Source: a bacterium
GTDB taxonomy: Bacteria; Patescibacteriota; Minisyncoccia; UBA6257; JAGOQP01
Assembly: GCA_021801825.1 (NCBI GenBank)
Contig: JAJYXK010000007.1
Span: 24,509-88,508 of the forward strand
Reading direction: 5' to 3'
Length of the DNA: 64,000 nt
Part shown: positions 2,789 through 34,495 of the stretch, piece after piece
Numbering within the stretch: the stretch's first letter is position 1
How the letters are laid out: every line of letters begins with the position of its first letter
The notes under the pieces: generated by a model
Databases searched by the model: none
Told to the model about the DNA's origin: nothing
What the model saw: only the letters and a program-made list of their open reading frames with translations
Made by a program: the position numbers and the translations under genes

Positions 2789-6168
<3,380 letters not shown>

Positions 6169-6301
6169 ATCTGTACAATGCAAGTGATACCATCCGTCGC
6201 ATCTTTTGATGCTATGGTGTGGCACAATACGTCGCTTTTCAGAGAGGTTTTGAACGATACTTTAATAAAGAAAATATAATGATGTGATAGAAATGTTTTT
6301 A

Positions 6302-6447
6302 AAGAAGCATTTCATTTGCTGGTGATCTAGTGTTGCGTGCCCCACCTCTTCCCATTCCGAACAGAGAAGTGAAAGCGTAATACTCCGATGATACTCGTTC
6401 GCGGGGAAAGTAGGATTTGCCAGCATATGAAATGCTTCTTTTTTATT
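6302..6447 (+). other. 14-bp inverted repeat (aagaagcatttcat ... atgaaatgcttctt) enclosing the whole 5S gene, followed by T-run: processing stem / operon terminator
   Basis: Perfect complementarity 6302..6315 with 6428..6441, then tttttt. Confidence 0.55.
6318..6424 (+). rRNA. rrf: 5S ribosomal RNA
   Basis: gctggtgat...cccattccgaacagagaagtgaaag...gccagc; terminal helix pairing. Confidence 0.9.
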
Positions 6448-6487
6448 CTATATATAATTTATGATAAACTATAGCTATTAAATATTT

Positions 6488-7519
6488 ATGAGATTATTGA
6501 AACAAATTCTTTACGGAGGCATCTTTCTTATTATTATTGTGCTTGTAGTGTGGTGGTTGGTGGGTTTGATATATACACCAAGTCCAACCTGTTTTGATAA
6601 TTCACAAAACCAAGGAGAAGAAGGAGTTGATTGTGGTGGGCCCTGTATATCGTGCGAAATAAAATCCCTCAAACCAATCACTATTCAAAATAAATTTATT
6701 ATTCCCCTGGAAAATGAGGCGGGGGTAGTTATTGAATTAATTAATCCTAATACGGAATGGGCCGCAAAGTCTTTTGACTATACGCTTATTTTTAAAGATC
6801 AGTTTGGATCTGTGGTTCAATCTATAACAGGCAATTCATTTATATATGCGGGAGAGTTTAAGGACATAATACTTCCCCGTATTTCTGCAAGTAGCACCAC
6901 GGTAGCGACGGTAGACATAACAATACAAAATCCTCAATGGGAACAAAAAGAGATTTTTAGAAAACCCGAGGTGGAAATTCAAGAATTTGGAACAAGCTAC
7001 GAAAAAGGTATCGTTGTGTCAACAAAGATTAATAACAAAGACACTCAATCTCTTATAAACGTAGATGTCGCGGCGCTTGTTTTTAATCGTTCTGGTGTGC
7101 TTATTGGAGCCTCAAAAACACGCATAGATTCTCTTCCTGCATTTGAATCAAAACAAGTGCGCATTATATTCCCTAAAAATCTAGACCTCTATCAGCCAAC
7201 TATTGCTCCTGCTATTAGTTTTTCTCGTGTACTTATACAAGGAGATACCGGTGAAGATGTGGGAGATTTACAAATGGTATTAAAAGAACAGGGATTATAC
7301 GCGGGTGTTACTACAAAGTTTTTTGACGCTGATACACAAGCGGCGGTGCGAGAATTTCAGCAAAAAAATAAATTAGAAGTAACAGGGATGTTGGATGAAA
7401 CCACGCGAATATTTATTAACAAACTTTTAACCGATAATACACCACAACAAAATACTCAGGTTAAAGATACAAGCGTGGATGCGAGCAGGACAAAAGTGTT
7501 TGTGGAGGTGAGCAGATAA
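6488..7519 (+). CDS. Membrane-anchored protein with N-terminal Cys cluster and C-terminal peptidoglycan-binding (PG_binding_1-like) domain
   Basis: N-terminal TM; CFDNSQNQGEEGVDCGGPCISC; C-terminal GDTGEDVGDLQMVLKEQGLYAGVTTKFFDADTQAAVREFQQKNKLEVTGMLD. Confidence 0.6.
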   Translation: MRLLKQILYGGIFLIIIVLVVWWLVGLIYTPSPTCFDNSQNQGEEGVDCGGPCISCEIKSLKPITIQNKFIIPLENEAGVVIELINPNTEWAAKSFDYTLIFKDQFGSVVQSITGNSFIYAGEFKDIILPRISASSTTVATVDITIQNPQWEQKEIFRKPEVEIQEFGTSYEKGIVVSTKINNKDTQSLINVDVAALVFNRSGVLIGASKTRIDSLPAFESKQVRIIFPKNLDLYQPTIAPAISFSRVLIQGDTGEDVGDLQMVLKEQGLYAGVTTKFFDADTQAAVREFQQKNKLEVTGMLDETTRIFINKLLTDNTPQQNTQVKDTSVDASRTKVFVEVSR

Positions 7520-7578
7520 GAATGGGGATAAGGGGTTAGTTGTTAGATATTAGTGAAAATAGTTATATCACGAGTCAT

Positions 7579-8277
7579 ATGAAAGTTTCAGTTCTTGTAA
7601 TAGCGCATAATGAAGAGAAACACATACGAAAGTGTTTAGTCTCACTACAAAATCAAACAAAAATTCCGGATGAAATTGTGGTTATTGCGCATAACTGTAC
7701 TGACAACACCATAGCAATAGCAAATGAATTTTCTCGAGTGCGGGTAGTAACTCATAATACGAGAGAAAAAGGTCCTCTCTACGCGCGCATTAAAGGATTC
7801 CAAGAAGTGCGGGAAGATATTGTTGCGTGTATAGATGGAGATTCATGCGCTTCTCCCCAGTGGGTAGAAAAAATTACAAAACCATTTGAGAATAATTTGG
7901 TTGTTGGTGTCGGAGGTATTATTTGGTTCAATGGCGTTATGGCGAATCTTGCGACCATTGGGTTCTTCTTCTTAGATCCTCTATTTCGTCCTACATATCA
8001 TTTTTATTTTTGGGGTGCAAATTTTGCAGTGCGAAAATCTGCATATGGTGCGGTGGGGGGGCTGGAACCACTTATTACTCTAAAAGAAGAACTAAAACTA
8101 CATCTCATGCCGGATGATGCTTATCTTTCGTGTGCGCTTATAAGAATGGGGAAGGTAGTATACGCGCGCAAAGCTAAGGTTTTTTCTGATGATAACTACT
8201 CGGGAACAAAAAATAAGGGGGATTTCCAAAATGAAGATAGGCTAACACTTTTTAGACATTTTGGGTTAATAAAGTAA
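7579..8277 (+). CDS. Glycosyltransferase family 2
   Basis: MKVSVLVIAHNEEKHIRKCLVSLQNQT...DGDS motif region (ORF track 7540..8277, start moved to Met at 7579). Confidence 0.65.
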   Translation: MKVSVLVIAHNEEKHIRKCLVSLQNQTKIPDEIVVIAHNCTDNTIAIANEFSRVRVVTHNTREKGPLYARIKGFQEVREDIVACIDGDSCASPQWVEKITKPFENNLVVGVGGIIWFNGVMANLATIGFFFLDPLFRPTYHFYFWGANFAVRKSAYGAVGGLEPLITLKEELKLHLMPDDAYLSCALIRMGKVVYARKAKVFSDDNYSGTKNKGDFQNEDRLTLFRHFGLIK

Positions 8278-10758: not shown

Positions 10759-11151
10759 ATGAAAAAATATGTATTTGTTATTGTTGGCGCAATCCTTTTT
10801 GTGGGGATTATGATCGTAATAACCCCGAGAGAAAAAAGTGAAAAGGGAGAGAAATTAACAGTTTCCCCTGGTATTAGCGGCAATTCGCGAATATTCAAAG
10901 GGACCGTTAAGGAAAAAGATGTTGAGGTTTATAACGGCAACGTTATTGTTAGGTGTAATTCTGTTGAAAACAATGACGATATTGCTGTGATGATTGATGT
11001 TTTTGTACCACTCTCTCGGGCACATCAGTTATCTGTTGGTGATACGGTAAAATATGTTGAAAAGTATGTTACCGCCATCACAAAACCTCACGGAGACCCC
11101 AGGTCTGTTCTAATCGGTTTCTGGGTTGATGAAAATCTAATAAAGAAATAG
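10759..11151 (+). CDS. Small membrane-anchored hypothetical protein
   Basis: N-terminal TM (VFVIVGAILFVGIMIVI), RBS gaagga upstream. Confidence 0.5.
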   Translation: MKKYVFVIVGAILFVGIMIVITPREKSEKGEKLTVSPGISGNSRIFKGTVKEKDVEVYNGNVIVRCNSVENNDDIAVMIDVFVPLSRAHQLSVGDTVKYVEKYVTAITKPHGDPRSVLIGFWVDENLIKK

Positions 11152-11267
11152 CTTCTCCTGAAAAAGTTTTTCGCCGGCTTCTTCTAAAAACTGGTTGAAT
11201 CAGTAGCATCTTTGTATTACTGTGCGCCATTGCTTTTCTCCGTATGGCCGGAGATATGGCACATTTA

Positions 11268-11312
11268 CCGCCATAGATTTCTACGAGGCGTAGAAAACTA
11301 GGCGGTTTTTTT
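11268..11312 (+). terminator. Rho-independent terminator (ccgcc...tctacg-agg-cgtaga...ggcgg + T7)
   Basis: Nested hairpin followed by ttttttt. Confidence 0.5.
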
Positions 11313-11630
11313 ATTGAATTTTTTCTTCTTCTATCCATTAGCTCATAATAGCCCACCCCTCCTTATTGGGTTATCCCCATCCGCACTTGTATTAAAAAAT
11401 GGGTGGATGTATACTATAAATGTTCTTCAAAGGAATACAGCTTCAAAAGTCCCAAGGGACACGTGAAACAATAAACATCTTTTTCATCTTTTGATCTGTA
11501 TATTTTCATTAAGGGCACATAGATCTTTTAAATATATAAGTGTTTCTAAACTACATACAAAAGTTTTTCTGGCTTTGTCCAGGCAATACGTAACAAACGG
11601 TTACACTGTAGTACAGATTCACAGTTTCAC

Positions 11631-11693
11631 CGAAGGCCCTCCTTGCACGTTTGCTTTTTAGGAGAGGCCTTCTTTTTTTATTTTAATCTAAAA
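11631..11693 (+). terminator. Rho-independent terminator 40 nt upstream of valS ATG (gaaggccctcc...ggagaggccttc + T7ATTTT)
   Basis: 10-bp stem (one mismatch), ~19-nt loop, long T-run. Confidence 0.5.
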
Positions 11694-11733
11694 CCCTTTG
11701 AAAAGAGTGAATTTTAGTGTACTATTTTTAGTA

Positions 11734-13914
11734 ATGAACGAAGATTTTCTCAAACCATACAACCATTCACACGAAAAAGATATATATAACTCCTGGGAAA
11801 AGAGCGGTTTTTTTAACCCAGGAAATCTCACTCCTAATTCCTCGTCTCTCGCCCCTCGCCCCTTCTCTATTATCATGCCTCCTCCCAACTCCAATGGATC
11901 ATTACATGTGGGGCATGCGCTCACCATAACTGTGGAGGATTTGATGGTTCGCTATTGGCGCATGCGTGGAGCGCCAACATTATGGTTACCGGGTGCAGAT
12001 CATGCGGGATTTGAGACACAGGTGGTGTTTGAAAAAAGACTGGAAAAAGAAGGAACGAGTCGATTTGAGATACTGCAAAAACCCAATGGACGAGAAGAAC
12101 TATATAAACGCATTTGGGATTTTACACAAGAGAATAAGGTGCATATGGAGCATCAAATTCGTCAGCTGGGAGCATCCTGTGATTGGAGTAAGGAAACCTT
12201 TACCCTTGATCCAAAAATTGTAGCAACGGTGTATGAAACCTTTAAAAAATTGTACGACGACGGACTAATTTATCGCGATACGCGCATTGTAAATTGGTGT
12301 CCAAAACATCAAACGACTCTCTCTGATTTGGAGGTAAAATATGAAGAACGAGTTGATCCGTTGTATTACGTAAAGTACGGTCCAATTACTTTGGCGACCG
12401 TACGGTTAGAAACGAAATTCGGTGATACGGCCATCGCAGTGCACCCGAGTGATGCGCGCTATAAGGATTTAATAGGAACAGAAATAGAAGTAGAAGCAAT
12501 CGCGGGGAAAACAAAAATAAAAATTATTGCTGATGAACATGTGGATCCGACATTTGGTACCGGGGCGGTGAAGGTGACTCCTGCGCATGATGCGGATGAT
12601 TATGCGATCTGGCAACGACACAAGGATGAAATTGATGGCCCCAGGCCAGTCATTGATCAGTGGGGTAAAATGTCTTTATTGGCATATTTTGCGGATAACG
12701 CCGACGTAATGAAATATGAAGGTCTTAGAATTGCGGAAGCGCGTAAACACATCGCGCACGACATGCAGGAGAAAGGATTAATTGAAAAAGTTGAAGAACA
12801 ATATAAACATAACGTGGCGTTGTGTTATAAATGTGGAGCAGTTTTGGAACCACGAGTACTTCCGCAATGGTTTATCGATCTCACTAAAGAAGGCGTTAAA
12901 AAAATAGTGCAACCGGCAATTGACGCGGTAAAAAGTAAAAAGATACAAATAATCCCCGAGTTTCAGGAAAAGATATTTTTACACTGGATGGAAAATATTC
13001 GCGACTGGAATATTTCACGACAAATTGTGTGGGGGATTCCGATACCAGCGTGGTATAAAGAAAACTCAAAACTAGGAGAGAGGGAAGAAATTTATATTGG
13101 AAAGGAAAAACCCCAAGATGATGGGTGGGTGCAAGAAACCGACGTGTTTGATACATGGTTTTCGTCAGGGCAGTGGCCGTTTGCAACATTACGCGCGCAT
13201 GGATTAGAAAAAGAGTTCTATCCTACGAGTGTTATGGAGACGGCATATGATATTTTGTTCTTCTGGGTGGCACGCATGATAATGCTCGGGCTCTATATTA
13301 CGGGAGAAGTTCCTTTTAAGACGGTTTATTTGCATGGATTGGTGCGCGATAAAGACAAACAAAAAATGTCTAAGTCAAAAGGAAATGTGGTTGATCCGCT
13401 GGGCATTGTGGAACAATATGGCGCGGATGCGTTACGCATGGCATTGTTAGTTGGAAACTCTCCGGGGCAGGATGCAAGTTTTGATGAGGCAAAGGTAAAA
13501 GGATATAGAAATTTTTCTAATAAACTATGGAATATTGCGCGCTTTGTATTGTCACAAGGCGCAATTCCCAATAACTCTTCGGATATATCAAGCGAAGATA
13601 AGAAATATATAGAGCGTATGCAAGAGGTAAAAAAAGAAGTGGCAGAAAATATTGAGAAATACCGTTTCTCGCAAGCGGCAGAAATCGCATATCATTATGT
13701 GTGGCATGAGTTTGCAGATAAAATTATTGAAGAAAAGAAAAAAGATATTATTGAAGGGGATGAACAAAAAGGGAATTCAGCTCGTCACGTGTTGTATGTG
13801 CTACTTACGGAATCATTAAAAATATTACATCCGTTTATGCCATTTGTGACCGAGGCGATTTATACGCGACTACCTCATAAGAACGCGGAATTTCTCATGA
13901 TTGAGGAATGGTAA
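11734..13914 (+). CDS. valS: Valyl-tRNA synthetase (short form, 727 aa, lacks C-terminal coiled-coil)
   Basis: PPPNSNGSLHVGHAL (HIGH), DTWFSSGQWPF (ValRS hallmark), KMSKSKGNVVDP; ORF track start TTG 11698, ATG 11734 preferred. Confidence 0.85.
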   Translation: MNEDFLKPYNHSHEKDIYNSWEKSGFFNPGNLTPNSSSLAPRPFSIIMPPPNSNGSLHVGHALTITVEDLMVRYWRMRGAPTLWLPGADHAGFETQVVFEKRLEKEGTSRFEILQKPNGREELYKRIWDFTQENKVHMEHQIRQLGASCDWSKETFTLDPKIVATVYETFKKLYDDGLIYRDTRIVNWCPKHQTTLSDLEVKYEERVDPLYYVKYGPITLATVRLETKFGDTAIAVHPSDARYKDLIGTEIEVEAIAGKTKIKIIADEHVDPTFGTGAVKVTPAHDADDYAIWQRHKDEIDGPRPVIDQWGKMSLLAYFADNADVMKYEGLRIAEARKHIAHDMQEKGLIEKVEEQYKHNVALCYKCGAVLEPRVLPQWFIDLTKEGVKKIVQPAIDAVKSKKIQIIPEFQEKIFLHWMENIRDWNISRQIVWGIPIPAWYKENSKLGEREEIYIGKEKPQDDGWVQETDVFDTWFSSGQWPFATLRAHGLEKEFYPTSVMETAYDILFFWVARMIMLGLYITGEVPFKTVYLHGLVRDKDKQKMSKSKGNVVDPLGIVEQYGADALRMALLVGNSPGQDASFDEAKVKGYRNFSNKLWNIARFVLSQGAIPNNSSDISSEDKKYIERMQEVKKEVAENIEKYRFSQAAEIAYHYVWHEFADKIIEEKKKDIIEGDEQKGNSARHVLYVLLTESLKILHPFMPFVTEAIYTRLPHKNAEFLMIEEW

Positions 13915-16604: not shown

Positions 16605-16648
16605 AGCCATTTTTTGACTATGTGGGATAAAAATGGTATTATAAAAAC

Positions 16649-17377
16649 ATGAATTGGATACTAGCGTTGCTGTTGGGGTTTATTCCGGGGCTGGTATGGC
16701 TTATGTTCTTTCTTCGCGAAGATGAACATCCAGAGCCGTCAAAAATGATTATCGCCGCTTTTGCGTCCGGTGGTATCGCGGCGTTTGTCTCTCTTTTTCT
16801 TGAAGCGATATCTTCAGGAATGTTAGAAAAGTTGATTATTACACTTCCTCGTGTTTTTGAGAGTAATATTAGTGTATTTGTGGGATTTGCAATTATTGAA
16901 GAAGTGGTAAAGTTTTTACTTATATTTGCGCTTATACGAAGAAGTAAATATTTTGACGAACCAGTGGATGCAATGATCTATATGATGACGGGAGCCCTAG
17001 GGTTTGCGACAGTTGAGAATGTTGTTATTACGTACCAAAATGGACTCGCTGATGCAACAACGCTTATTTTAGTTCGATTTGTAGGGGCAACACTTTTACA
17101 CGCGCTTGCCTCGGGTATTATTGGCCACTATTGGGCACGAGGAATTGTATTTAAAATGGAGGCAAAGTTTATTGTTGCGGGGGTAATTATGGCATCAGTA
17201 TTTCACAGTATGTTTAATATGTTAGTCACGAAATTTAGCGATTATCTAGTCTATCCACTCGCAGTCCTTTTATTAATTGGATTTTTCGTATTGTATGATT
17301 TTGAAGAACTAAAGAAATTAGCGCAAAATAATGTTGCGCCGGTTTCTTCGCGGGAAGATACTATAAACCCTGTTTGA
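16649..17377 (+). CDS. PrsW-family intramembrane protease
   Basis: Multi-TM; EEVVKF and GFATVEN motifs typical of PrsW family (family knowledge). Confidence 0.6.
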   Translation: MNWILALLLGFIPGLVWLMFFLREDEHPEPSKMIIAAFASGGIAAFVSLFLEAISSGMLEKLIITLPRVFESNISVFVGFAIIEEVVKFLLIFALIRRSKYFDEPVDAMIYMMTGALGFATVENVVITYQNGLADATTLILVRFVGATLLHALASGIIGHYWARGIVFKMEAKFIVAGVIMASVFHSMFNMLVTKFSDYLVYPLAVLLLIGFFVLYDFEELKKLAQNNVAPVSSREDTINPV

Positions 17378-17447
17378 TGTATCTTGGAGAGTGGGGTATA
17401 CTAAAAGAATATTAGTGATAAATATTTAGTATTAAGGAATTTAATTT

Positions 17448-28352: not shown

Positions 28353-28432
28353 ATAGATATATCTTATCGCCTTTCTATTTTTCAAACAACCCAACTCAAG
28401 ATTTTTCATAATTTCTTGCGATTGAAATATGT

Positions 28433-28471
28433 TAAAAAACAAAAAAATCCCGCCGAGGAAAAGGGGCGGGA
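28433..28471 (-). terminator. Rho-independent terminator downstream of tRNA-Trp (minus strand: tcccgcc-N10-ggcggga + T7GT6)
   Basis: Plus strand aaaaaacaaaaaaatcccgccgaggaaaaggggcggga. Confidence 0.5.
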
Positions 28472-28498
28472 CATATCTAACTTAAACAAAAAGGTTTG

Positions 28499-28572
28499 CA
28501 CCGGCGGAGGGAGTCGAACCCCCAACTTGCGGTTTTGGAGACCGTTGCTCTAGCCAATTGAGCTACGCCGGC
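28499..28572 (-). tRNA. tRNA-Trp (anticodon CCA), discriminator G73, CCA not encoded
   Basis: GCCGGCG acceptor, D-arm GCTC-AATTGGCTA-GAGC, anticodon loop CTCCAAA, T-arm GGGGG-TTCGACT-CCCTC. Confidence 0.85.
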
Positions 28573-28590
28573 AGAAACCTTATTTATAAA

Positions 28591-29937
28591 CTAATTACTC
28601 AAAGTGCTAATGAAGTCGTCTATATCCTTTTTAGTAACATGTGGCATGATCGTAAATCGATATACTAGGATAGTACGTTTTATGATCATAGTCTTTTCAT
28701 CGCGCTCTGTCAAGTCTTTAGGAAAATGATCCTGTACAATACAAAATTGTTCTCGTATTTCTGAAAACCGCTTTTTTAAATTCCGCGAAAGTCTAACGGT
28801 TAAGATGTTTGTGCGGCCCTTGTAGATTTGTATTCCGGGAATAGTTTTCAGGGCGTCCTCTAAGTATTGGCGATGCTTCATGCATCTCTGTATTATTTCA
28901 TTGAATCCTTCATACCCGTGCTGTTGAAGTGTTGCCCAACATGCTGCAGCGATTGCTCCAGACCGAGATCCAGGAATAGTATAGTCGGTGTGTCCATAGA
29001 TATATCGCGCGGTTGTTTTAGTAAATTCAAGGAATCCTTTGCGGCATAAGAATATACCAGCAGAATAAGGAACCCACCCTGTCTTATGGGCATCAATAGA
29101 TACAGATCCTACTAAGGGATGCTGGAATGCAAATTTACAATCCGGTTCTATAAATGGAATTACAAATCCGCCAAAAGCGGCATCTACATGAACATATGCG
29201 GCCATGTATAATTCAGATCTTAGACGCTCTAGGGTCTTACAGATTTCATACACGGGATCAATACTGCCCATATTAGTTGTTCCGGCTGTAAGAAAAACAG
29301 CAAATCGCCGGTAACCTTTTTTGTGGTGTGCGCGGATTTCTTCTTCTACAACGCGCGGTTCTAATTCGCCGTTATTATCCGTGGGGAGTTCCAGGAGCAT
29401 GTTGCTGTGTTTGCAGCTTTCATTAGGGTTCTTTCCCAAAAGACGATGAAAGGCCTTCTCAATGCTGTAGTGAAATAGAAATGATCGAAGGACTACAATT
29501 CCTTGGTTTTCACCTTCGGTAACGGTTATATCTTTCCACAGCTTATTTCGAGCGAGCCACAATCCGTGGTCATTTCCATCGGTTCCACCGGTACATAAAT
29601 ATCCATCTATTTTTTTAGAAGGATTTTTAACGCCGATCATTTGCGCTACGCCATATATGAATTCTCTCTCAAGTTTTTGGGTACCCGCAAAACCCATCTC
29701 AGATGGTTTTTCATCTGCTGATTTGGTATGGTAGCCGATATTATTTGGTTGTCTCTTAGAGAACATGTTGTGAACTTGTAGCGCGAGTTTATTTGGTGTT
29801 GTCCCGGGGAATCCAAGAATTGGTTGGGATTCATAATTAATACATTGAGCAAGGGAGTCGATGAGTGTTTTGTTTATTTCTTGTATGTTGTTTCCTTTGT
29901 GAGGAAACCAGTCGGGGTCCTCTGTTTTCTTCTTCAT
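28591..29937 (-). CDS. Group II PLP-dependent decarboxylase (MfnA/aromatic-amino-acid decarboxylase-like)
   Basis: HVDAAFGGFVIPF and S-x-D-x-HK (SVSIDAHKTGWVPYSAG) PLP-lysine motif; 448 aa. Confidence 0.65.
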   Translation of the reverse strand: MKKKTEDPDWFPHKGNNIQEINKTLIDSLAQCINYESQPILGFPGTTPNKLALQVHNMFSKRQPNNIGYHTKSADEKPSEMGFAGTQKLEREFIYGVAQMIGVKNPSKKIDGYLCTGGTDGNDHGLWLARNKLWKDITVTEGENQGIVVLRSFLFHYSIEKAFHRLLGKNPNESCKHSNMLLELPTDNNGELEPRVVEEEIRAHHKKGYRRFAVFLTAGTTNMGSIDPVYEICKTLERLRSELYMAAYVHVDAAFGGFVIPFIEPDCKFAFQHPLVGSVSIDAHKTGWVPYSAGIFLCRKGFLEFTKTTARYIYGHTDYTIPGSRSGAIAAACWATLQQHGYEGFNEIIQRCMKHRQYLEDALKTIPGIQIYKGRTNILTVRLSRNLKKRFSEIREQFCIVQDHFPKDLTERDEKTMIIKRTILVYRFTIMPHVTKKDIDDFISTLSN

Positions 29938-29938
29938 A

Positions 29939-30961
29939 TCATCCTCCGTTGAAGAATTTATTTTTAATGCCTATTTTATCGCGTATTTCCGCGATGGTTT
30001 CATTAAATATCGGTGTTACATAAGCTTTTCCTGCCTCAAGAACGTCTCTTATAAGGCTGGGTTTTTCCAATAGCTGTATGCGTTGCTCTCTAAATTCTTC
30101 CAGAAGATTGTTTACATTAACCGAAAGTAATTTTTTGCAATCAATACAACCAATCGCAGCTTTTTCGCAACCGTTCTTGCTCCAATTAGTTTCGTCTGGA
30201 GCACTAATTAATTTGTGAAGTTGGAAAATAGAACAATGTTCCGGGTTTCCCTGGTCCGTCTTTCTTATGCGGTTCGGATCCGTGGGGGCGATTTTAATTT
30301 TACGCCATGTTTCTTCTGGATTTTCTAAGAGGACAATGGTGTTTCCGTCGCTCTTTCCCATTTTTGGAAATCCGTTTTCGTTCATGGCCGACAACCCGGG
30401 GACAGTTATCATTTCGTTTAGAAGGGCGTCCGGAATAGGAAAATTCGTTTTGTAAAGATGATTAAGTCTCCTTGTAAGCGAAATAGTTAACTCAAGATGC
30501 GCCTGCTGGTCTTTTCCAACAGGGACGAGGTTCGCCTGGGGACCGATAATATCTGCTGCCATAAGTACTGGATAATTAAATAGTCCAGCATTTACATCTT
30601 CGGGATGTTTAGCAACCTTATCCTTATAGGTGGGGAGCCCCTCTAAATCTTTTACCGGAGTTATACAGGATAGATACCAGGCAAGTTCAGTAACCTGTGG
30701 TACGTCAGATTGAAGATAGATAAAAGAATTTTCCAAACTAATCCCGGACGCAAGATAATCAATAACAATGTTAGGCATGTGTTGCTCAATCATCTGCGCC
30801 TCTTTCAGTGTGGTAAGGGTGTGTAAATCTGCCACAAAGAATAAACATTTGTAGCTACTATTTTTTGACATTTCTGCAAAACGGGTGAGTACGCCGAGAT
30901 AATTTCCAAGATGTAACTTTCCTGTTGCTCTAATGCCTGACAAAACAACCTTTTTTTGCAT
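29939..30961 (-). CDS. trpS: Tryptophanyl-tRNA synthetase with C-x21-C-x6-C-x2-C putative Fe-S motif
   Basis: SGIRATGKLHLGNYLG (HIGH), KMGKS (KMSKS), Cys cluster HCSIFQ...NGCEKAAIGCIDCKK. Confidence 0.85.
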   Translation of the reverse strand: MQKKVVLSGIRATGKLHLGNYLGVLTRFAEMSKNSSYKCLFFVADLHTLTTLKEAQMIEQHMPNIVIDYLASGISLENSFIYLQSDVPQVTELAWYLSCITPVKDLEGLPTYKDKVAKHPEDVNAGLFNYPVLMAADIIGPQANLVPVGKDQQAHLELTISLTRRLNHLYKTNFPIPDALLNEMITVPGLSAMNENGFPKMGKSDGNTIVLLENPEETWRKIKIAPTDPNRIRKTDQGNPEHCSIFQLHKLISAPDETNWSKNGCEKAAIGCIDCKKLLSVNVNNLLEEFREQRIQLLEKPSLIRDVLEAGKAYVTPIFNETIAEIRDKIGIKNKFFNGG

Positions 30962-31081
30962 ACTACATCTCCTTTTAGCATTTGCTAAAGTTAGTTTTTT
31001 TGAATGACTTTATTATCAAATTTCTGATTTTATAATAAAACATTATATAAAAAGAGTCAATTTCATACTATAACAAAGTAT

Positions 31082-31222: not shown

Positions 31223-31258
31223 AATAGACCTCTGTGATAAAGGTCTATTGTTTTATTG
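31223..31258 (+). terminator. Intrinsic terminator inside the 250-nt leader upstream of 31364 (aatagacct-N9-aggtctatt + gttttattg): attenuator/riboswitch-like
   Basis: Perfect 9-bp stem + T-run, located between promoter and RBS gaggagacagt-ATG. Confidence 0.45.
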
Positions 31259-31363: not shown

Positions 31364-32110
31364 ATGAAAATAACGATAGGCATAGAACGAGAGTGGTTTA
31401 TCTTAAAAGATAATAAGATAGCCCCTTTTATTGGAAAACTTCTTCCCGAGCTTGAAATAGAATGCACTCGAAGAAATCTTCCAAAAGAATTATTCTCATT
31501 TGAGCTGTTTGCGGGACAGGTTGAAGATAGAACACGAGTTGCCTCCAGTGTTCAAGAGGCCCTTTGTTTTCTTCATAGTAACGAAGAAATACTTATGGCG
31601 GTTGGGAGAAGGCTTGGATTACAGTTCCTGTGTACCGAGTATGTCTCTGAGGAGGATCTGGGAGAGCTTGTGGTAAATCCTTTTAATCCTCGCCATAAAG
31701 AAATTTGGCAAGGATTACAAAAGATTGAGAAAGTCTCCGCTTCTCAAGTTGCGGCTATCCATATTCATATTAGCGCCACCCTGGAAGAGGCGATGTGTGT
31801 CTTAAACTTTTGTCGAAAACCGATTATAGATGATCTATGTAAACTAGGGGATTTTTCTTCCGGAAAACGCATGGAGTCATATAGAACTATGGCAAAAGTT
31901 TATGGAGATCCGCCTGAATTTGAAAACTCAAACGACCTACTCTCTTATATTAAAAACAAGGGGGGGGAAAAAAATGTTTGGGATCTCGTGAGATATAAAC
32001 CATCGACCGGAACCGTTGAATTCAGAATGTTTGGCGCTACAAATAACGATAGTTTTATTGCGCTATTCATCTTAGCTTGCGAAGAGGTATTCGCAAGAGC
32101 CTGTGTGTAA
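31364..32110 (+). CDS. Truncated GCS2/YbdK-family carboxylate-amine ligase (248 aa)
   Basis: N-terminal IGIEREWFIL (cf. GxExE motif), central AAIHIHISA (HxH), C-terminal GTVEFRMFGAT (cf. TVEVRV), all typical of the YbdK family from memory. Confidence 0.55.
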   Translation: MKITIGIEREWFILKDNKIAPFIGKLLPELEIECTRRNLPKELFSFELFAGQVEDRTRVASSVQEALCFLHSNEEILMAVGRRLGLQFLCTEYVSEEDLGELVVNPFNPRHKEIWQGLQKIEKVSASQVAAIHIHISATLEEAMCVLNFCRKPIIDDLCKLGDFSSGKRMESYRTMAKVYGDPPEFENSNDLLSYIKNKGGEKNVWDLVRYKPSTGTVEFRMFGATNNDSFIALFILACEEVFARACV

Positions 32111-32164: not shown

Positions 32165-32992
32165 TTGTTCTATACTACTAATATTATGTATCGCGACAAA
32201 CCACTTATAAAAGAATATGGGAAAGGTAGTCCTCGGGTCGTTGTTGTTGGATCCCTTCATGGGGATGAACCAGTGGGCGCTCGTATCATTAAAGCGATAG
32301 AAAAACATCCTCTGTATAAAGGGACATTGATTACTATTGTAGGGAATCCTGTTGCGCTACAGAAGGGAGTTAGGTATATTGCTCAAGATTTGAACAGGTG
32401 TTTTCCTGGGAAAAAGACGGGTTCTCACGAAGAGAAATTAGCACATCAGATTGAGAAAATAATTCGTCATGCTGATTATTGTATTGATATTCATTCAACC
32501 TCTACCAACACTCGTCGGGCGGCTATTATAAAGAAAAAGAATGTTTTTGTTAAGAAATTACTTTCACTGTGTGTGCCTGAGCATATAGTAATTATGCCTA
32601 AAGGAGTTGGAGATGGATCTTTGATTAATTTCTGTAAAGCTGGTGTCAGCTTAGAATATGGTAAACACCAGAGCCGGCAGACGTATACGGAATCATTAAG
32701 AGACACACTCTTGGTATTGGAAAATTTAGGGATGATACAAAAGACTCGCCTCACAAAGAAACCATGGAAAATCAGCAAATATTATTCGGTATATGGGACT
32801 GAACCAAAACCGGAAAGTTTTATTATGAGAAAATCCATCTTAAACTTTGAGCTAATCAAAAAGGGGGACGTTCTGGGAAAAGTGAGTGAAAAAGAGATAT
32901 TTGCAAAAGAATCTTTCTATCCAGTCCTTTTTGGAGGAAGATCTTACAAAGAAATAATGGGTTTTAAAGCAAAACGATTGGAAAGTTTATAA
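32165..32992 (+). CDS. Succinylglutamate desuccinylase/aspartoacylase (AstE/AspA, M14-like zinc hydrolase) family protein
   Basis: GSLHGDEPVG, DLNRCFPG, DIHST motifs. Confidence 0.6.
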   Translation: MFYTTNIMYRDKPLIKEYGKGSPRVVVVGSLHGDEPVGARIIKAIEKHPLYKGTLITIVGNPVALQKGVRYIAQDLNRCFPGKKTGSHEEKLAHQIEKIIRHADYCIDIHSTSTNTRRAAIIKKKNVFVKKLLSLCVPEHIVIMPKGVGDGSLINFCKAGVSLEYGKHQSRQTYTESLRDTLLVLENLGMIQKTRLTKKPWKISKYYSVYGTEPKPESFIMRKSILNFELIKKGDVLGKVSEKEIFAKESFYPVLFGGRSYKEIMGFKAKRLESL

Positions 32993-34015: not shown

Positions 34016-34495
34016 TTAGTTATGGGGTTGTTCTGTTATCTGCACAACAAATGCTTTAGTGAGCGTGATGACATCTTTTGGTTTCAGTGAGAATGTCTTG
34101 CTATTATCACCGGCGCCACAATACAAAATGTCTTGTTTGAGAAATGAATCATCAATATAAGTTGGAATTTCAGCCCCGAATGGGGGAATTGCTCCAATAG
34201 TAAAGCCAGCCTCCTCCACAGATTCTTTTGAGGCAAGTTGTATATCTTTCCGCGTAACCGAGAGAACTTCTGCTAATTTCTTTAGATTAAGATGGGCCAT
34301 ACCAGGAATCACTACTCTACACAATCCTTTTCCTGAAATAACCATGAGTAGGGTTTTTGCCATTTCATTTTCTGGGATGTCTAACTCACGTACGACATCC
34401 TCCATAGTAAAAACTGGTGCGTGATCCATTATTTCAAAAGCAATAGCATTATCTATCAATATAGCGCGAAGTTGTTCAAATGAGATTTTTGTCAT
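34016..34495 (-). CDS. YbaK/ProX-family aminoacyl-tRNA trans-editing deacylase
   Basis: KTLLMVISGKG, GAIPPFG, CGAGDNSKTF match YbaK family pattern (KTLL, GGxSPLG, SGGKRG) recalled from memory. Confidence 0.7.
   Translation of the reverse strand: MTKISFEQLRAILIDNAIAFEIMDHAPVFTMEDVVRELDIPENEMAKTLLMVISGKGLCRVVIPGMAHLNLKKLAEVLSVTRKDIQLASKESVEEAGFTIGAIPPFGAEIPTYIDDSFLKQDILYCGAGDNSKTFSLKPKDVITLTKAFVVQITEQPHN

Follow-up and report, generated by a model that had tools for sequence, protein, structure and literature searches.

The genes for tryptophanyl-tRNA synthetase (TrpRS; gene trpS), a group II PLP-dependent alpha-amino-acid decarboxylase, and tRNA-Trp form a conserved linkage in CPR/Patescibacteria, and this linkage is what is new here. 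In 24 independent loci, no more than 5 kb separate the TrpRS and decarboxylase genes, and a Trp-linked function of the decarboxylase is well supported by this gene context. The trio is described below for a 64,000-nucleotide stretch of DNA (the window) from a Patescibacteria (CPR) genome with relatives among Jorgensenbacteria and Paceibacteria.

Organization of the trpS, decarboxylase, and tRNA-Trp genes

All three genes are carried on the minus strand, with the decarboxylase gene between trpS and the tRNA-Trp gene, in agreement with the co-directional cluster described in the sequence-only reading. The features of the locus are as follows:

28434..28472, minus strand: intrinsic-terminator-like hairpin (CCCGCC ... 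GGCGGG, then a T-run), read from the sequence
28498..28572 (ARAGORN) or 28499-28572 (Rfam RF00005, 64 bits), minus strand: tRNA-Trp, anticodon CCA
28591..29937, minus strand: group II PLP-dependent alpha-amino-acid decarboxylase, 448 aa (ORF list, PF00282)
29939..30961, minus strand: trpS, tryptophanyl-tRNA synthetase, 340 aa (ORF list, TIGR00233, PF00579)
30137..30235, minus strand: predicted [4Fe-4S]-type four-Cys motif in the anticodon-binding domain of TrpRS (alignment to 2G36)
31032..31060, minus strand: putative promoter-like site (TTGACT, 17 nt, TATTAT), ~70 nt upstream of the trpS ATG
31364..32110, plus strand: short GCS2/YbdK-like carboxylate-amine ligase, 248 aa (PF04107), divergent from the operon
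32165..32992, plus strand: AstE/AspA-family zinc N-acyl-amino-acid or amide hydrolase, 275 aa, with an HGDE motif (PF24827, 73.8 bits)

The trpS start codon (ATG) is preceded by the Shine-Dalgarno sequence AAAGGAG. The putative promoter upstream of it has 10/12 consensus matches in a consensus scan, and both of its hexamers are also kept in L087, the 84%-identical relative. No T-box leader was found upstream of trpS, and the Rfam gathering scan of the window returned rRNA and tRNA only. The trpS stop codon is separated from the decarboxylase ATG by 1 nt, and the decarboxylase ribosome-binding site (GGAGGA) is located within the 3' end of trpS; this junction is predicted to result in translational coupling. 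The tRNA-Trp gene follows 18 nt after the decarboxylase stop codon. Its product has the discriminator base G73 and a G1-U72 pair, its 3' CCA is not encoded, and it is an ordinary tRNA-Trp. The terminator-like stretch beyond it (positions 28430-28497, 68 nt) is predicted by RNAfold to fold with an 8-bp GC stem (-17.0 kcal/mol); the hairpin was absent from the consensus-scan output because its loop is 10 nt long. Judging from these signals, trpS, the decarboxylase gene, and the tRNA-Trp gene are predicted to form one transcription unit that extends from the promoter-like site to the terminator hairpin.

The synthetase and the decarboxylase

The trpS product passes the NCBIfam trpS equivalog cut-off (TIGR00233; 265 bits versus 176.75), matches PF00579 (E=2.9e-55), and has the TrpRS entries 6ncr and 2g36 as its best PDB sequence matches. 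The class I signatures are HLGN (residue 17) and KMGKS (residue 200), and the Asp of YPVLMAADI aligns with the Trp-recognising Asp136 of the Thermotoga maritima enzyme. The cysteine spacing C-x21-C-x6-C-x2-C, which the sequence-only reading had pointed out in the C-terminal domain, is present (CSIFQLHKLISAPDETNWSKNGCEKAAIGCIDC; C243, C265, C272, and C275). In a phmmer alignment to PDB 2G36, these residues match the T. maritima ligands Cys236, Cys259, Cys266, and Cys269 column for column, and the cluster-contacting Arg224 is kept as the first Arg of TDPNRIRK (TDPARVRR in T. maritima). The motif is not a chance occurrence, since it aligns with 2G36 and recurs in 22 of the 24 decarboxylase-linked TrpRS genes. 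The Fe-S assignment made earlier is thus correct by alignment but not new: the [4Fe-4S] motif has been defined as C-x(21-24)-C-x6-C-x2-C and reported in >200 TrpRS sequences (PMC2954223). The window TrpRS is predicted to be an active bacterial enzyme of this known and widespread [4Fe-4S]-type variant. It shares the bacterial TrpRS fold, the four-Cys motif, Arg224, and Asp136 with T. maritima TrpRS (TM0492, PDB 2G36; phmmer E=2e-63), whereas the first spacer is x22 in T. maritima and x21 in the window, inside the published range of x21-24. The window enzyme also has KMGKS for KMSKS and HLGN for HIGH, and its organism is no known thermophile.

The decarboxylase passes the Pfam PF00282 cut-off (81.7 bits versus 27). 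Both motifs recognized earlier, HVDAAFGG (residues 250-257) and SxDxHK (SIDAHK, residues 280-285), are present. The catalytic residues are H156 (the ring-stacking His), D252, K285 (the PLP lysine), Y312 (in the catalytic loop), and R427 (carboxylate binding). H156, D252, and Y312 are invariant, and R427 shows conservation of at least 90%. K285 and R427 align with MfnA residues K245 and R371, respectively, as confirmed by the K245A and R371A mutant chains. Such residue conservation suggests that the protein is a catalytically competent alpha-decarboxylase. Its AlphaFold2 model (pLDDT, 93.1) has a decarboxylase fold, and the top 50 Foldseek PDB matches all belong to the group II decarboxylase family, sphingosine-1-phosphate lyase included, the nearest being MfnA (3f9t).

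MfnA, to which a likeness had been proposed, is also the best NCBIfam match (E=1.2e-52), but the protein stays below the MfnA equivalog cut-off (TIGR03812; 179 bits versus 299.4). It is likewise below the histidine decarboxylase equivalog cut-off (NF002748; 133.3 bits versus 305). In the tree, it is placed in a CPR/Bacteroidota group and not with archaeal MfnA, the split between this group and the archaeal MfnA-like proteins having only moderate support (47% bootstrap). The TrpRS-linked decarboxylases do not form a clean clade in the bootstrapped neighbor-joining tree: an unlinked Bacteroidota group is nested among them, and L098 falls outside. The substrates of the nearest characterised relatives are Tyr/Asp (MfnA), Ser/Ala, and His. 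The substrate is not identifiable from the decarboxylase sequence or its predicted fold, and nothing there specifies Trp. Some distant decarboxylase homologues match PF00266 as well.

Cysteine desulfurases are also fold-type I PLP enzymes and, given the PF00266 matches and the Fe-S motif in 22/24 of the neighboring TrpRS genes, the decarboxylase could be imagined as a desulfurase-like sulfur donor for the [4Fe-4S] cluster of the adjacent synthetase. This reading was already disfavoured and can be practically dismissed: (i) in L017 and L173, the TrpRS encoded next to the decarboxylase is a canonical one that has no Cys motif, and the linkage is therefore independent of the Fe-S type; (ii) the conserved residues are those of decarboxylases, including the loop Tyr312 and the carboxylate-binding Arg427; and (iii) the protein has no conserved loop cysteine, C298 being a structural Cys common to the family.

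Linkage across CPR genomes and neighboring genes

In 22 of the 24 linked loci, the distance between the TrpRS and decarboxylase genes is at most 700 nt, and a tRNA-Trp gene is present in 23. Two tRNA-Trp genes are found in L170. In L169, trpS is 4.5 kb away and the tRNA-Trp gene still lies 29 nt past the decarboxylase gene. Decarboxylase identity over these loci extends from 84% down to ~30%. The genes are arranged in no fewer than five distinct orders and orientations. No other gene family is common to more than 7 loci (first 20 loci, 7 kb on either side), indicating that the background synteny has decayed. The juxtaposition of the three genes is thus not due to chance, as it is seen again in 24 independent loci. 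In the reverse test, all three TrpRS relatives picked without regard to the decarboxylase had a decarboxylase gene downstream (3/3). At least 13 further TrpRS/decarboxylase pairs occur on contigs of equal size. Conservation of the decarboxylase gene next to trpS in relatives, which the sequence-only reading had proposed to check, therefore extends over distant CPR lineages. No TrpRS gene was found near the archaeal MfnA-like homologues (~110 loci) or near the Bacteroidota homologues (~30).

Given that some ancient gene orders have survived in the small CPR genomes, the linkage might reflect inherited gene order only, with an MfnA-like housekeeping Tyr/Asp decarboxylase (producing beta-alanine or tyramine) retained in an old trpS/tRNA-Trp neighborhood; MfnA is, after all, the best match by both NCBIfam and fold. 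This explanation is decidedly unlikely in view of the missed MfnA cut-off, the ~110 archaeal MfnA-type loci without TrpRS, and the survival of the adjacency through at least five rearrangements in which all other neighbors change. In addition, the variable neighbors are enriched in Trp-pathway and amine-modifying genes and not in CoA or methanofuran genes. It had been considered that the decarboxylase might fall into a clade with an unrelated housekeeping role and lack conserved synteny; instead, both equivalog cut-offs are missed and synteny is conserved.

The accessory genes differ from locus to locus. Amine-acylating enzymes and trp-pathway genes make up a wider context that the sequence-only reading had missed. 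The GCS2-like gene of the window matches PF04107 with 32 bits (cut-off, 21) over profile positions 2-139 of 291 only; it is kept beside the trio in L087 and is on the other side of the trio in L088. GCS2-like genes occur in 3 loci and M20 genes in 5, and AstE-like homologues are found near the trio in 7 (L001, L087, L088, L169, L008, L013, and L014). The GCS2-like ligase, possibly performing ATP-dependent N-acylation of the amine, and the AstE/AspA-like hydrolase may be accessory genes of the operon, and we infer this link for both. GNAT genes are present in ~7/24 loci and absent from the window; their Pfam match is PF00583, that of ordinary acetyl-CoA GNATs and not of Fem-type double GNATs. 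L174 has a decarboxylase-GNAT fusion, and homologous stand-alone GNATs are encoded in L176 and L010. Similarly, TrpC, TrpB, TrpA, and a TrpD-like gene adjoin the trio in L170, TrpB is beside it in L011, TrpD-like genes occur in 8 loci, and a class I/II aminotransferase occurs in 3. None of these trp-pathway genes was found in the window. No permease family was seen among the Pfam-annotated neighbors (11 contexts).

A neighborhood of TrpD-like, BtpA, HAD, PfkB, TrpC/B/A, aminotransferase, and deacylase genes could also point to Trp supply or quality control, in which the substrate of the PLP enzyme would be a precursor, conjugate, or analogue of Trp and not Trp itself; a toxic analogue that TrpRS might mischarge could, for instance, be cleared in this way. 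The TrpD-like/BtpA/HAD module, located by the trio in at least 8 loci, the TrpC-TrpB-TrpA block of L170, and the three loci with an aminotransferase would all suit such a role, and the N-acyl hydrolases (AstE-like and M20) could free aromatic amino acids. However, the enzyme has the full alpha-decarboxylase signature, loop Tyr and carboxylate-binding Arg included, and its product should therefore be an amine instead of an amino acid. None of the known Trp pathways has a step that calls for an enzyme of this kind, and the window contains no trp-pathway genes. Altogether, we consider Trp supply or quality control rather unlikely.

From gene context, the most likely of the readings, with about even chances, is that the decarboxylase acts on L-tryptophan or on an indole amino acid very close to it, probably forming tryptamine. 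It would share this substrate with TrpRS, and co-expressed TrpRS and tRNA-Trp would keep Trp charging going during the drain on free Trp. The amine would then probably be N-acylated or deacylated. In this genome, the candidates for this step are the divergently encoded GCS2-like ligase and the AstE/AspA-like hydrolase; in relatives, they are GNAT acetyltransferases (in one case as a fusion with the decarboxylase), M20 amidohydrolases, and SAM methyltransferases. The Trp- or aromatic-amine-linked function suggested earlier is thus upheld as regards the Trp link, by conserved gene context, whereas tryptamine as the product is probable and, like the substrate and the downstream acylation, is something that we infer, the known Trp decarboxylases being only ~20% identical. 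It counts against a Trp drain that an organism of limited biosynthetic ability would be destroying a scarce amino acid.

Substrate sharing alone does not account for the persistent tie to the tRNA gene. This tie has a place in a tRNA-dependent pathway, where Trp-tRNA(Trp) would be the acyl donor and a transferase (GNAT-type in relatives) would join the tryptophanyl group to the decarboxylase-made amine, yielding a tryptophanyl-amide; the decarboxylase substrate need not be Trp. Both the aaRS gene and the tRNA gene stay with the decarboxylase, the latter even in L169, where trpS has moved, and the duplicated tRNA-Trp gene of L170 and the PLP-enzyme/GNAT fusion of L174 are consistent with such a pathway. 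GNAT-fold aminoacyl-tRNA transferases are known, the PLP-domain fusion DhpH among them (PMC12945691). However, the GNATs match the acetyl-CoA type, occur in only ~7/24 loci, and are missing from the window, the decarboxylases are not basic (median pI, 6.3), and the tRNA-Trp is ordinary, which makes this pathway very unlikely.

A broader proposal is that the trio is the core of an undescribed CPR pathway from Trp to an N-acylated indoleamine or tryptophanyl-amide serving as an episymbiont-host signal or effector. Acylation of the amine from the decarboxylase would fall to a GNAT (fused in L174), to a GCS2-type ligase, or possibly to a transferase dependent on Trp-tRNA, and the TrpRS and tRNA-Trp of the operon would supply the acyl donor or protect translation against the product. 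We regard this proposal as improbable.

Comparison with known systems and implications

The adjacency of an aaRS gene and the gene for its cognate amino-acid decarboxylase, with both enzymes competing for one substrate, is documented (PMC3315439). The tyrS-tdcA-tyrP and hdc-hisS clusters of Enterococcus and Lactobacillus resemble the CPR trio in having the aaRS gene directly beside that of a cognate PLP (or pyruvoyl) decarboxylase. The protection of charging suggested above would have the same rationale as that put forward for lactic acid bacteria with their tyrS-tdcA and hisS-hdc clusters. A parallel to the tyrS-1/tyrS-2 pair is seen in L008, a complete CPR genome with two TrpRS genes, one of them inside the decarboxylase operon; no second TrpRS copy was found in the window. 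The known clusters lead to tyramine and histamine, whereas here the proposed substrate is Trp and the unit includes the tRNA gene. The amino-acid/amine antiporter and the T-box leader of the lactic-acid-bacterial clusters are missing here, the TrpRS of the trio is apparently the ordinary one in most genomes, the decarboxylase is of another lineage (the small MfnA/SDC/HDC type), and the hosts are ultra-small CPR bacteria and not Firmicutes.

MfnA, the archaeal L-tyrosine/L-aspartate decarboxylase (TIGR03812; 3F9T and 6JY1), comes closest among characterised relatives in profile and fold comparisons (22% identity; Foldseek E=1.8e-28), and its catalytic Lys, Asp, His, Tyr, and Arg are shared with the window protein. 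However, the window protein is ~55-70 residues longer, with insertions at ~70-82, 170-180, and 407-423, and has the signature residues NNIGxHT, DGY, HYS, PY, and GSR. Its locus lacks a methanofuran or CoA gene context, and the MfnA loci lack TrpRS. The Ruminococcus gnavus Trp decarboxylase (RUMGNA_01526; 4OBU/4OBV) shares the group II PLP fold (TM-score, ~0.74) and catalyzes the reaction proposed here, Trp to tryptamine, but it is only ~20% identical (phmmer E=8.4e-11 to 4obu) and belongs to another subfamily of ~490 aa. As the R. gnavus enzymes are not orthologous, they lend no homology support to the substrate assignment.

Decarboxylases are paired with an N-acyltransferase or ligase in AADC plus AANAT, in MfnA plus the tyramine-glutamate ligase MfnD, and in PuuA/PuuD. 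In arylalkylamine pathways, a GNAT or an ATP-dependent ligase attaches an acyl group to the nitrogen of the amine, and an amidohydrolase can remove this group. The recurrent partners of the CPR trio are in exactly these enzyme classes, although they are not orthologues and vary between loci, the window having the GCS2-like and AstE-like proteins only.

Further uncharacterised genes observed in these neighborhoods encode a divergent TrpD-like protein, BtpA, a chorismate-mutase-domain/methyltransferase fusion, and the decarboxylase-GNAT fusion. Together, these TrpD-like and BtpA proteins and the two fusions may form an unrecognised aromatic or indoleamine pathway.

For the [4Fe-4S]-type TrpRS, many CPR examples are added, and carriers of the variant include organisms with no obvious thermophily. 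The pairing of an aaRS with a cognate decarboxylase, described for Tyr and His in Firmicutes, would be extended to Trp in very different bacteria. The genomes of CPR/Patescibacteria are tiny, and little metabolism can be recognised in them; beyond the genes of the translation apparatus, explanations exist for few of their conserved gene linkages. A decarboxylase held by trpS and tRNA-Trp at identities down to ~30% provides a specific and cheaply testable hypothesis for this enzyme lineage. If true, the production of tryptamine-type amines by episymbionts could bear on their interaction with host cells.

Organization of the trpS region

The genes for TrpRS, a group II PLP decarboxylase, and tRNA-Trp lie together on the minus strand of the window, along with putative transcription signals.

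Features of the trpS-decarboxylase-tRNA-Trp region in the window
31060-31032, minus strand, promoter-like site (TTGACT, 17 nt, TATTAT), ~70 nt upstream of the trpS ATG
29939-30961, minus strand, trpS ORF, 340 aa (TIGR00233)
28591-29937, minus strand, group II PLP decarboxylase ORF, 448 aa (PF00282)
28498-28572, minus strand, tRNA-Trp (anticodon CCA), 18 nt past the decarboxylase stop codon
~28472-28434, minus strand, GC-rich hairpin and T-run, 3' of tRNA-Trp

A single nucleotide separates the TGA stop codon of trpS from the ATG of the decarboxylase gene, and the decarboxylase ribosome-binding site, GGAGGA, sits within the 3' end of trpS. The promoter-like site is kept in L087, the homologous locus of a relative with 84% identity. 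Based on the promoter-like site, the 1-nt gap, the 18-nt spacing, and the hairpin, the three genes are predicted to form one transcription unit. No T-box or other leader RNA was matched upstream of trpS at the Rfam gathering thresholds, and no tandem Trp codons were visible in the 400-nt trpS leader. The tRNA-Trp is ordinary (CCA anticodon, G73 discriminator) and has no unusual features, and the stop codons of this genome include UGA.

The divergent promoter region shared by trpS and the GCS2-like gene contains a perfect 9-bp inverted repeat (AATAGACCT, 9 nt, AGGTCTATT; window ~31223-31249), the sequence of which is not kept in L087. A free-standing YbaK/ProX-type tRNA_edit protein of 159 aa is encoded 3 kb from trpS (34016-34495, minus strand) and is kept only in close relatives. 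Elsewhere in the window, the 23S rRNA gene (2797-6164) gave a match of 3368 nt to the 2925-nt Rfam model, indicating an insertion of ~440 nt, and the 5S rRNA gene was located at 6318-6425. The 2.8 kb upstream of the 23S rRNA gene contain protein ORFs and no 16S rRNA gene. CPR bacteria typically have rRNA genes that carry insertions and are unlinked.

TrpRS and decarboxylase proteins

The 340-aa protein was identified as a bacterial TrpRS (TIGR00233, 265 bits; cutoff, 176.75). The Cys motif proposed in the sequence-only reading, C-x21-C-x6-C-x2-C, is exact, with Cys at residues 243, 265, 272, and 275, and its suggested likeness to the Fe-S TrpRS of Thermotoga was borne out by a phmmer comparison with the T. 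maritima enzyme (PDB 2G36; E = 2e-63), in which all four residues share columns with the ligands Cys236, Cys259, Cys266, and Cys269. Two further T. maritima residues, Arg224, which contacts the cluster, and Asp136, which binds Trp, are also kept in this alignment. The motif C-x(21-24)-C-x6-C-x2-C has already been published in >200 TrpRS sequences (PMC2954223), and the Fe-S-motif TrpRS of the window is an already known kind of enzyme.

The 448-aa protein was assigned to the group II PLP decarboxylases (PF00282, 81.7 bits) and contains the previously noted motifs HVDAAFGG and SxDxHK, the latter as SIDAHK. Comparison with 39 relatives showed every catalytic residue to be retained: His156 (stacking), Asp252, Lys285 (PLP lysine), Tyr312 (loop), and Arg427. 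In a profile search against PDB, Lys285 and Arg427 corresponded to Lys245 and Arg371, respectively, of MfnA, the archaeal L-tyrosine/L-aspartate decarboxylase that is the closest characterized relative; these correspondences are unambiguous because K245A and R371A mutant chains are present in PDB. MfnA was also the best fold match of the confident AlphaFold2 model (pLDDT, 93.1); further group II decarboxylases came next, among them the Trp decarboxylase of R. gnavus, with identities of ~20% throughout. The protein did not reach the curated cutoffs for MfnA (179 versus 299.4) or histidine decarboxylase (133 versus 305). It is predicted from its residues to be a competent alpha-amino-acid decarboxylase, the substrate of which homology does not reveal. 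A nucleic-acid-binding or tRNA-acting PLP enzyme was also considered and was demoted on the basis of the median pI of 6.3, the lack of a basic extension, and the full alpha-decarboxylase signature.

The closest relatives of the window are labeled Candidatus Jorgensenbacteria or Paceibacterota (CPR/Patescibacteria). A clean monophyletic TrpRS-linked clade, suggested by the first NJ tree, was unsupported in the bootstrapped tree, and the claim was withdrawn. In the bootstrapped tree, the Bacteroidota clade has 96% support, yet it nests among CPR sequences; CPR and Bacteroidota as a single group have only 47% support, and the sequence from locus L098 is placed outside, near archaeal sequences. 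The CPR decarboxylases are therefore a paraphyletic grade and not a clean clade. Signature residues are common to the CPR and Bacteroidota sequences and differ in archaeal MfnA, and the TrpRS-linked decarboxylases are longer (432 to 521 aa versus roughly 365 to 420 aa). L154, G190, G287, and G82 of the window protein are among the lineage-specific positions. As a clue to function, the gene context of the Bacteroidota sister clade was uninformative, the neighbors being HemN-like and cbb3-oxidase assembly genes.

Conservation of the linkage in CPR bacteria

A decarboxylase profile was run over representative genomes and metagenomes, each retrieved locus was searched for TrpRS and tRNA-Trp, and Pfam-annotated contigs were added to the profile-derived locus set. 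This decarboxylase-led search identified 21 independent loci with TrpRS <5 kb from the decarboxylase (19 of these have a distance of 700 nt or less), at which decarboxylase identity to the window protein ranges from 84% down to ~30%. In a reverse test, three TrpRS relatives on long contigs, none of which had surfaced in the decarboxylase search, all had a PF00282 gene just downstream and an adjoining tRNA-Trp. The decarboxylase is thus kept beside trpS in relatives, as the sequence-only reading had proposed to check, at a total of 24 independent CPR loci, with TrpRS within 700 nt in 22. For at least 13 further TrpRS/decarboxylase pairs, the TrpRS and decarboxylase homologue lists gave contigs of identical length. 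The linked loci have at least five gene arrangements.

Gene arrangements among the linked loci (dec, decarboxylase; angle brackets give gene direction)
Arrangement 1: trpS>dec>tRNA>
Arrangement 2: <trpS dec> <tRNA
Arrangement 3: <tRNA trpS> dec>
Arrangement 4: dec> <trpS tRNA>
Arrangement 5: tRNA> dec> trpS>

At L169, trpS is 4.5 kb off and tRNA-Trp is still 29 nt downstream of the decarboxylase, and L170 has two tRNA-Trp genes. Within 7 kb on either side, no other gene family was common to more than 7 of the first 20 loci, indicating that general synteny has decayed around a preserved core. No TrpRS was found near the decarboxylase homologues at ~110 archaeal MfnA-type loci or at ~30 Bacteroidota loci, and two CPR-type homologues had no visible TrpRS (L038, with full flanks, and L015, the upstream sequence of which extends for only 1.6 kb). 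As a comparative-genomic signal, the conserved trpS-decarboxylase-tRNA-Trp unit is solid; that it is mere inherited gene order, the decarboxylase having an MfnA-like housekeeping role, is improbable.

One sub-lineage has a small zinc-ribbon ORF (~82 aa) between trpS and the decarboxylase (L167:7741-7992, L168:~7745-7963, L170:6489-6737, and L175:7020-7274).

The Fe-S motif was present in 22 of the 24 decarboxylase-linked TrpRS genes. The TrpRS proteins of L017 and L173 are canonical and lack the motif, yet their genes are linked to the decarboxylase, so the linkage appears to be tied to Trp charging and not to the Fe-S cluster. The idea that the PLP protein is a sulfur donor for the TrpRS cluster is barely credible: a cysteine-desulfurase-like Fe-S helper was rejected based on these two loci and on the absence of a loop Cys. 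The complete 0.9-Mb chromosome OY970175.1 (L008) has two TrpRS genes back to back (5704-7995), a canonical KMSKS TrpRS without the Cys motif being divergent from an Fe-S TrpRS, which heads the decarboxylase operon.

Partner genes and predicted function

Several amine-modifying enzymes are encoded near the three genes: AstE/AspA-like hydrolases (7 loci, including the window), M20 amidohydrolases (5 loci), GCS2-like carboxylate-amine ligases (3 loci, including the window), and GNAT acetyltransferases (~7 loci; none in the 64-kb window by tblastn). At L174 (8425-10713), a single 762-aa ORF combines the decarboxylase with a GNAT domain, and stand-alone homologues of this domain are encoded at L176 and L010. 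The fusion argues that the amine product of the decarboxylase is the GNAT substrate. GNAT-fold aminoacyl-tRNA transferases are known, including DhpH with its PLP-domain fusion (PMC12945691), and they provide a precedent for Trp-tRNA-dependent acyl transfer to the amine, a reading that we nevertheless consider very unlikely. L168 alone has a gene of the DIT1/PvcA family (isonitrile synthase type), located at 11103-12224 and 1.7 kb downstream from the decarboxylase.

Other partners belong to aromatic or Trp pathways.

Aromatic-pathway partner genes at homologous loci
L170:10977-15407, TrpD-like and BtpA/SgcQ genes beside the trpS-decarboxylase unit; also in L007, L009, L013, L167, L169, L173, L175, and L176
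L170:9039-10178; L174:7048-8202 and 11663-12820; L008:~16630-17421; L169:13067-13900, chorismate-mutase-type (CM_2) domain fused to a SAM-dependent methyltransferase (4 loci, 5 genes)

The TrpD-like protein, present in 8 loci, had only anthranilate phosphoribosyltransferases as PDB matches; it is below the TrpD cutoff and has the altered motifs GMGGD and KHGS (versus GTGGD and KHGN). BtpA/SgcQ (TIM-barrel) was found in about 10 loci, and HAD and PfkB genes often accompany these recurrent genes. TrpC-TrpB-TrpA are encoded in L170 and TrpB in L011; no TrpD-like, BtpA, or TrpA/B/C genes were detected in the 64-kb window by tblastn. A role of the decarboxylase in Trp supply or analogue removal is unlikely, though less so than the acyl transfer.

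In L170, BtpA lies within a block with the TrpD-like protein, TrpC, TrpB, and TrpA, and no TrpF was visible in the stretch examined; BtpA might therefore substitute for TrpF there. BtpA homologues are also located 2 to 3 kb from the archaeal MfnA-type decarboxylase in L114, L119, and L120 (Archaeoglobi), which hints at a BtpA-decarboxylase link independent of TrpRS. An MqnA/MqnD-family gene (VitK2_biosynth) also adjoins in L174.

The nearest precedents come from lactic acid bacteria, namely, the tyrS-tdcA(-tyrP) cluster for tyramine and the hdc-hisS cluster, in which the synthetase and the decarboxylase have a common substrate (PMC3315439). Unlike these, the CPR unit has no antiporter or T-box leader, includes a tRNA gene, has a decarboxylase from a different lineage, and occurs in CPR hosts. 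The pairing of an aminoacyl-tRNA synthetase gene with a cognate decarboxylase gene is already known; the conserved trpS-decarboxylase-tRNA-Trp unit is a form of this pairing for which no prior description was found in the literature searched, a library that omits most subscription journals.

The decarboxylase is very probably coupled functionally to Trp charging. In the best-supported reading, a Trp-linked decarboxylase, most simply converting L-Trp to tryptamine, would be coexpressed with TrpRS and tRNA-Trp; for tryptamine specifically, where we infer the substrate, the chances are close to even. The amine product may then be acylated or deacylated by the variable partner enzymes.
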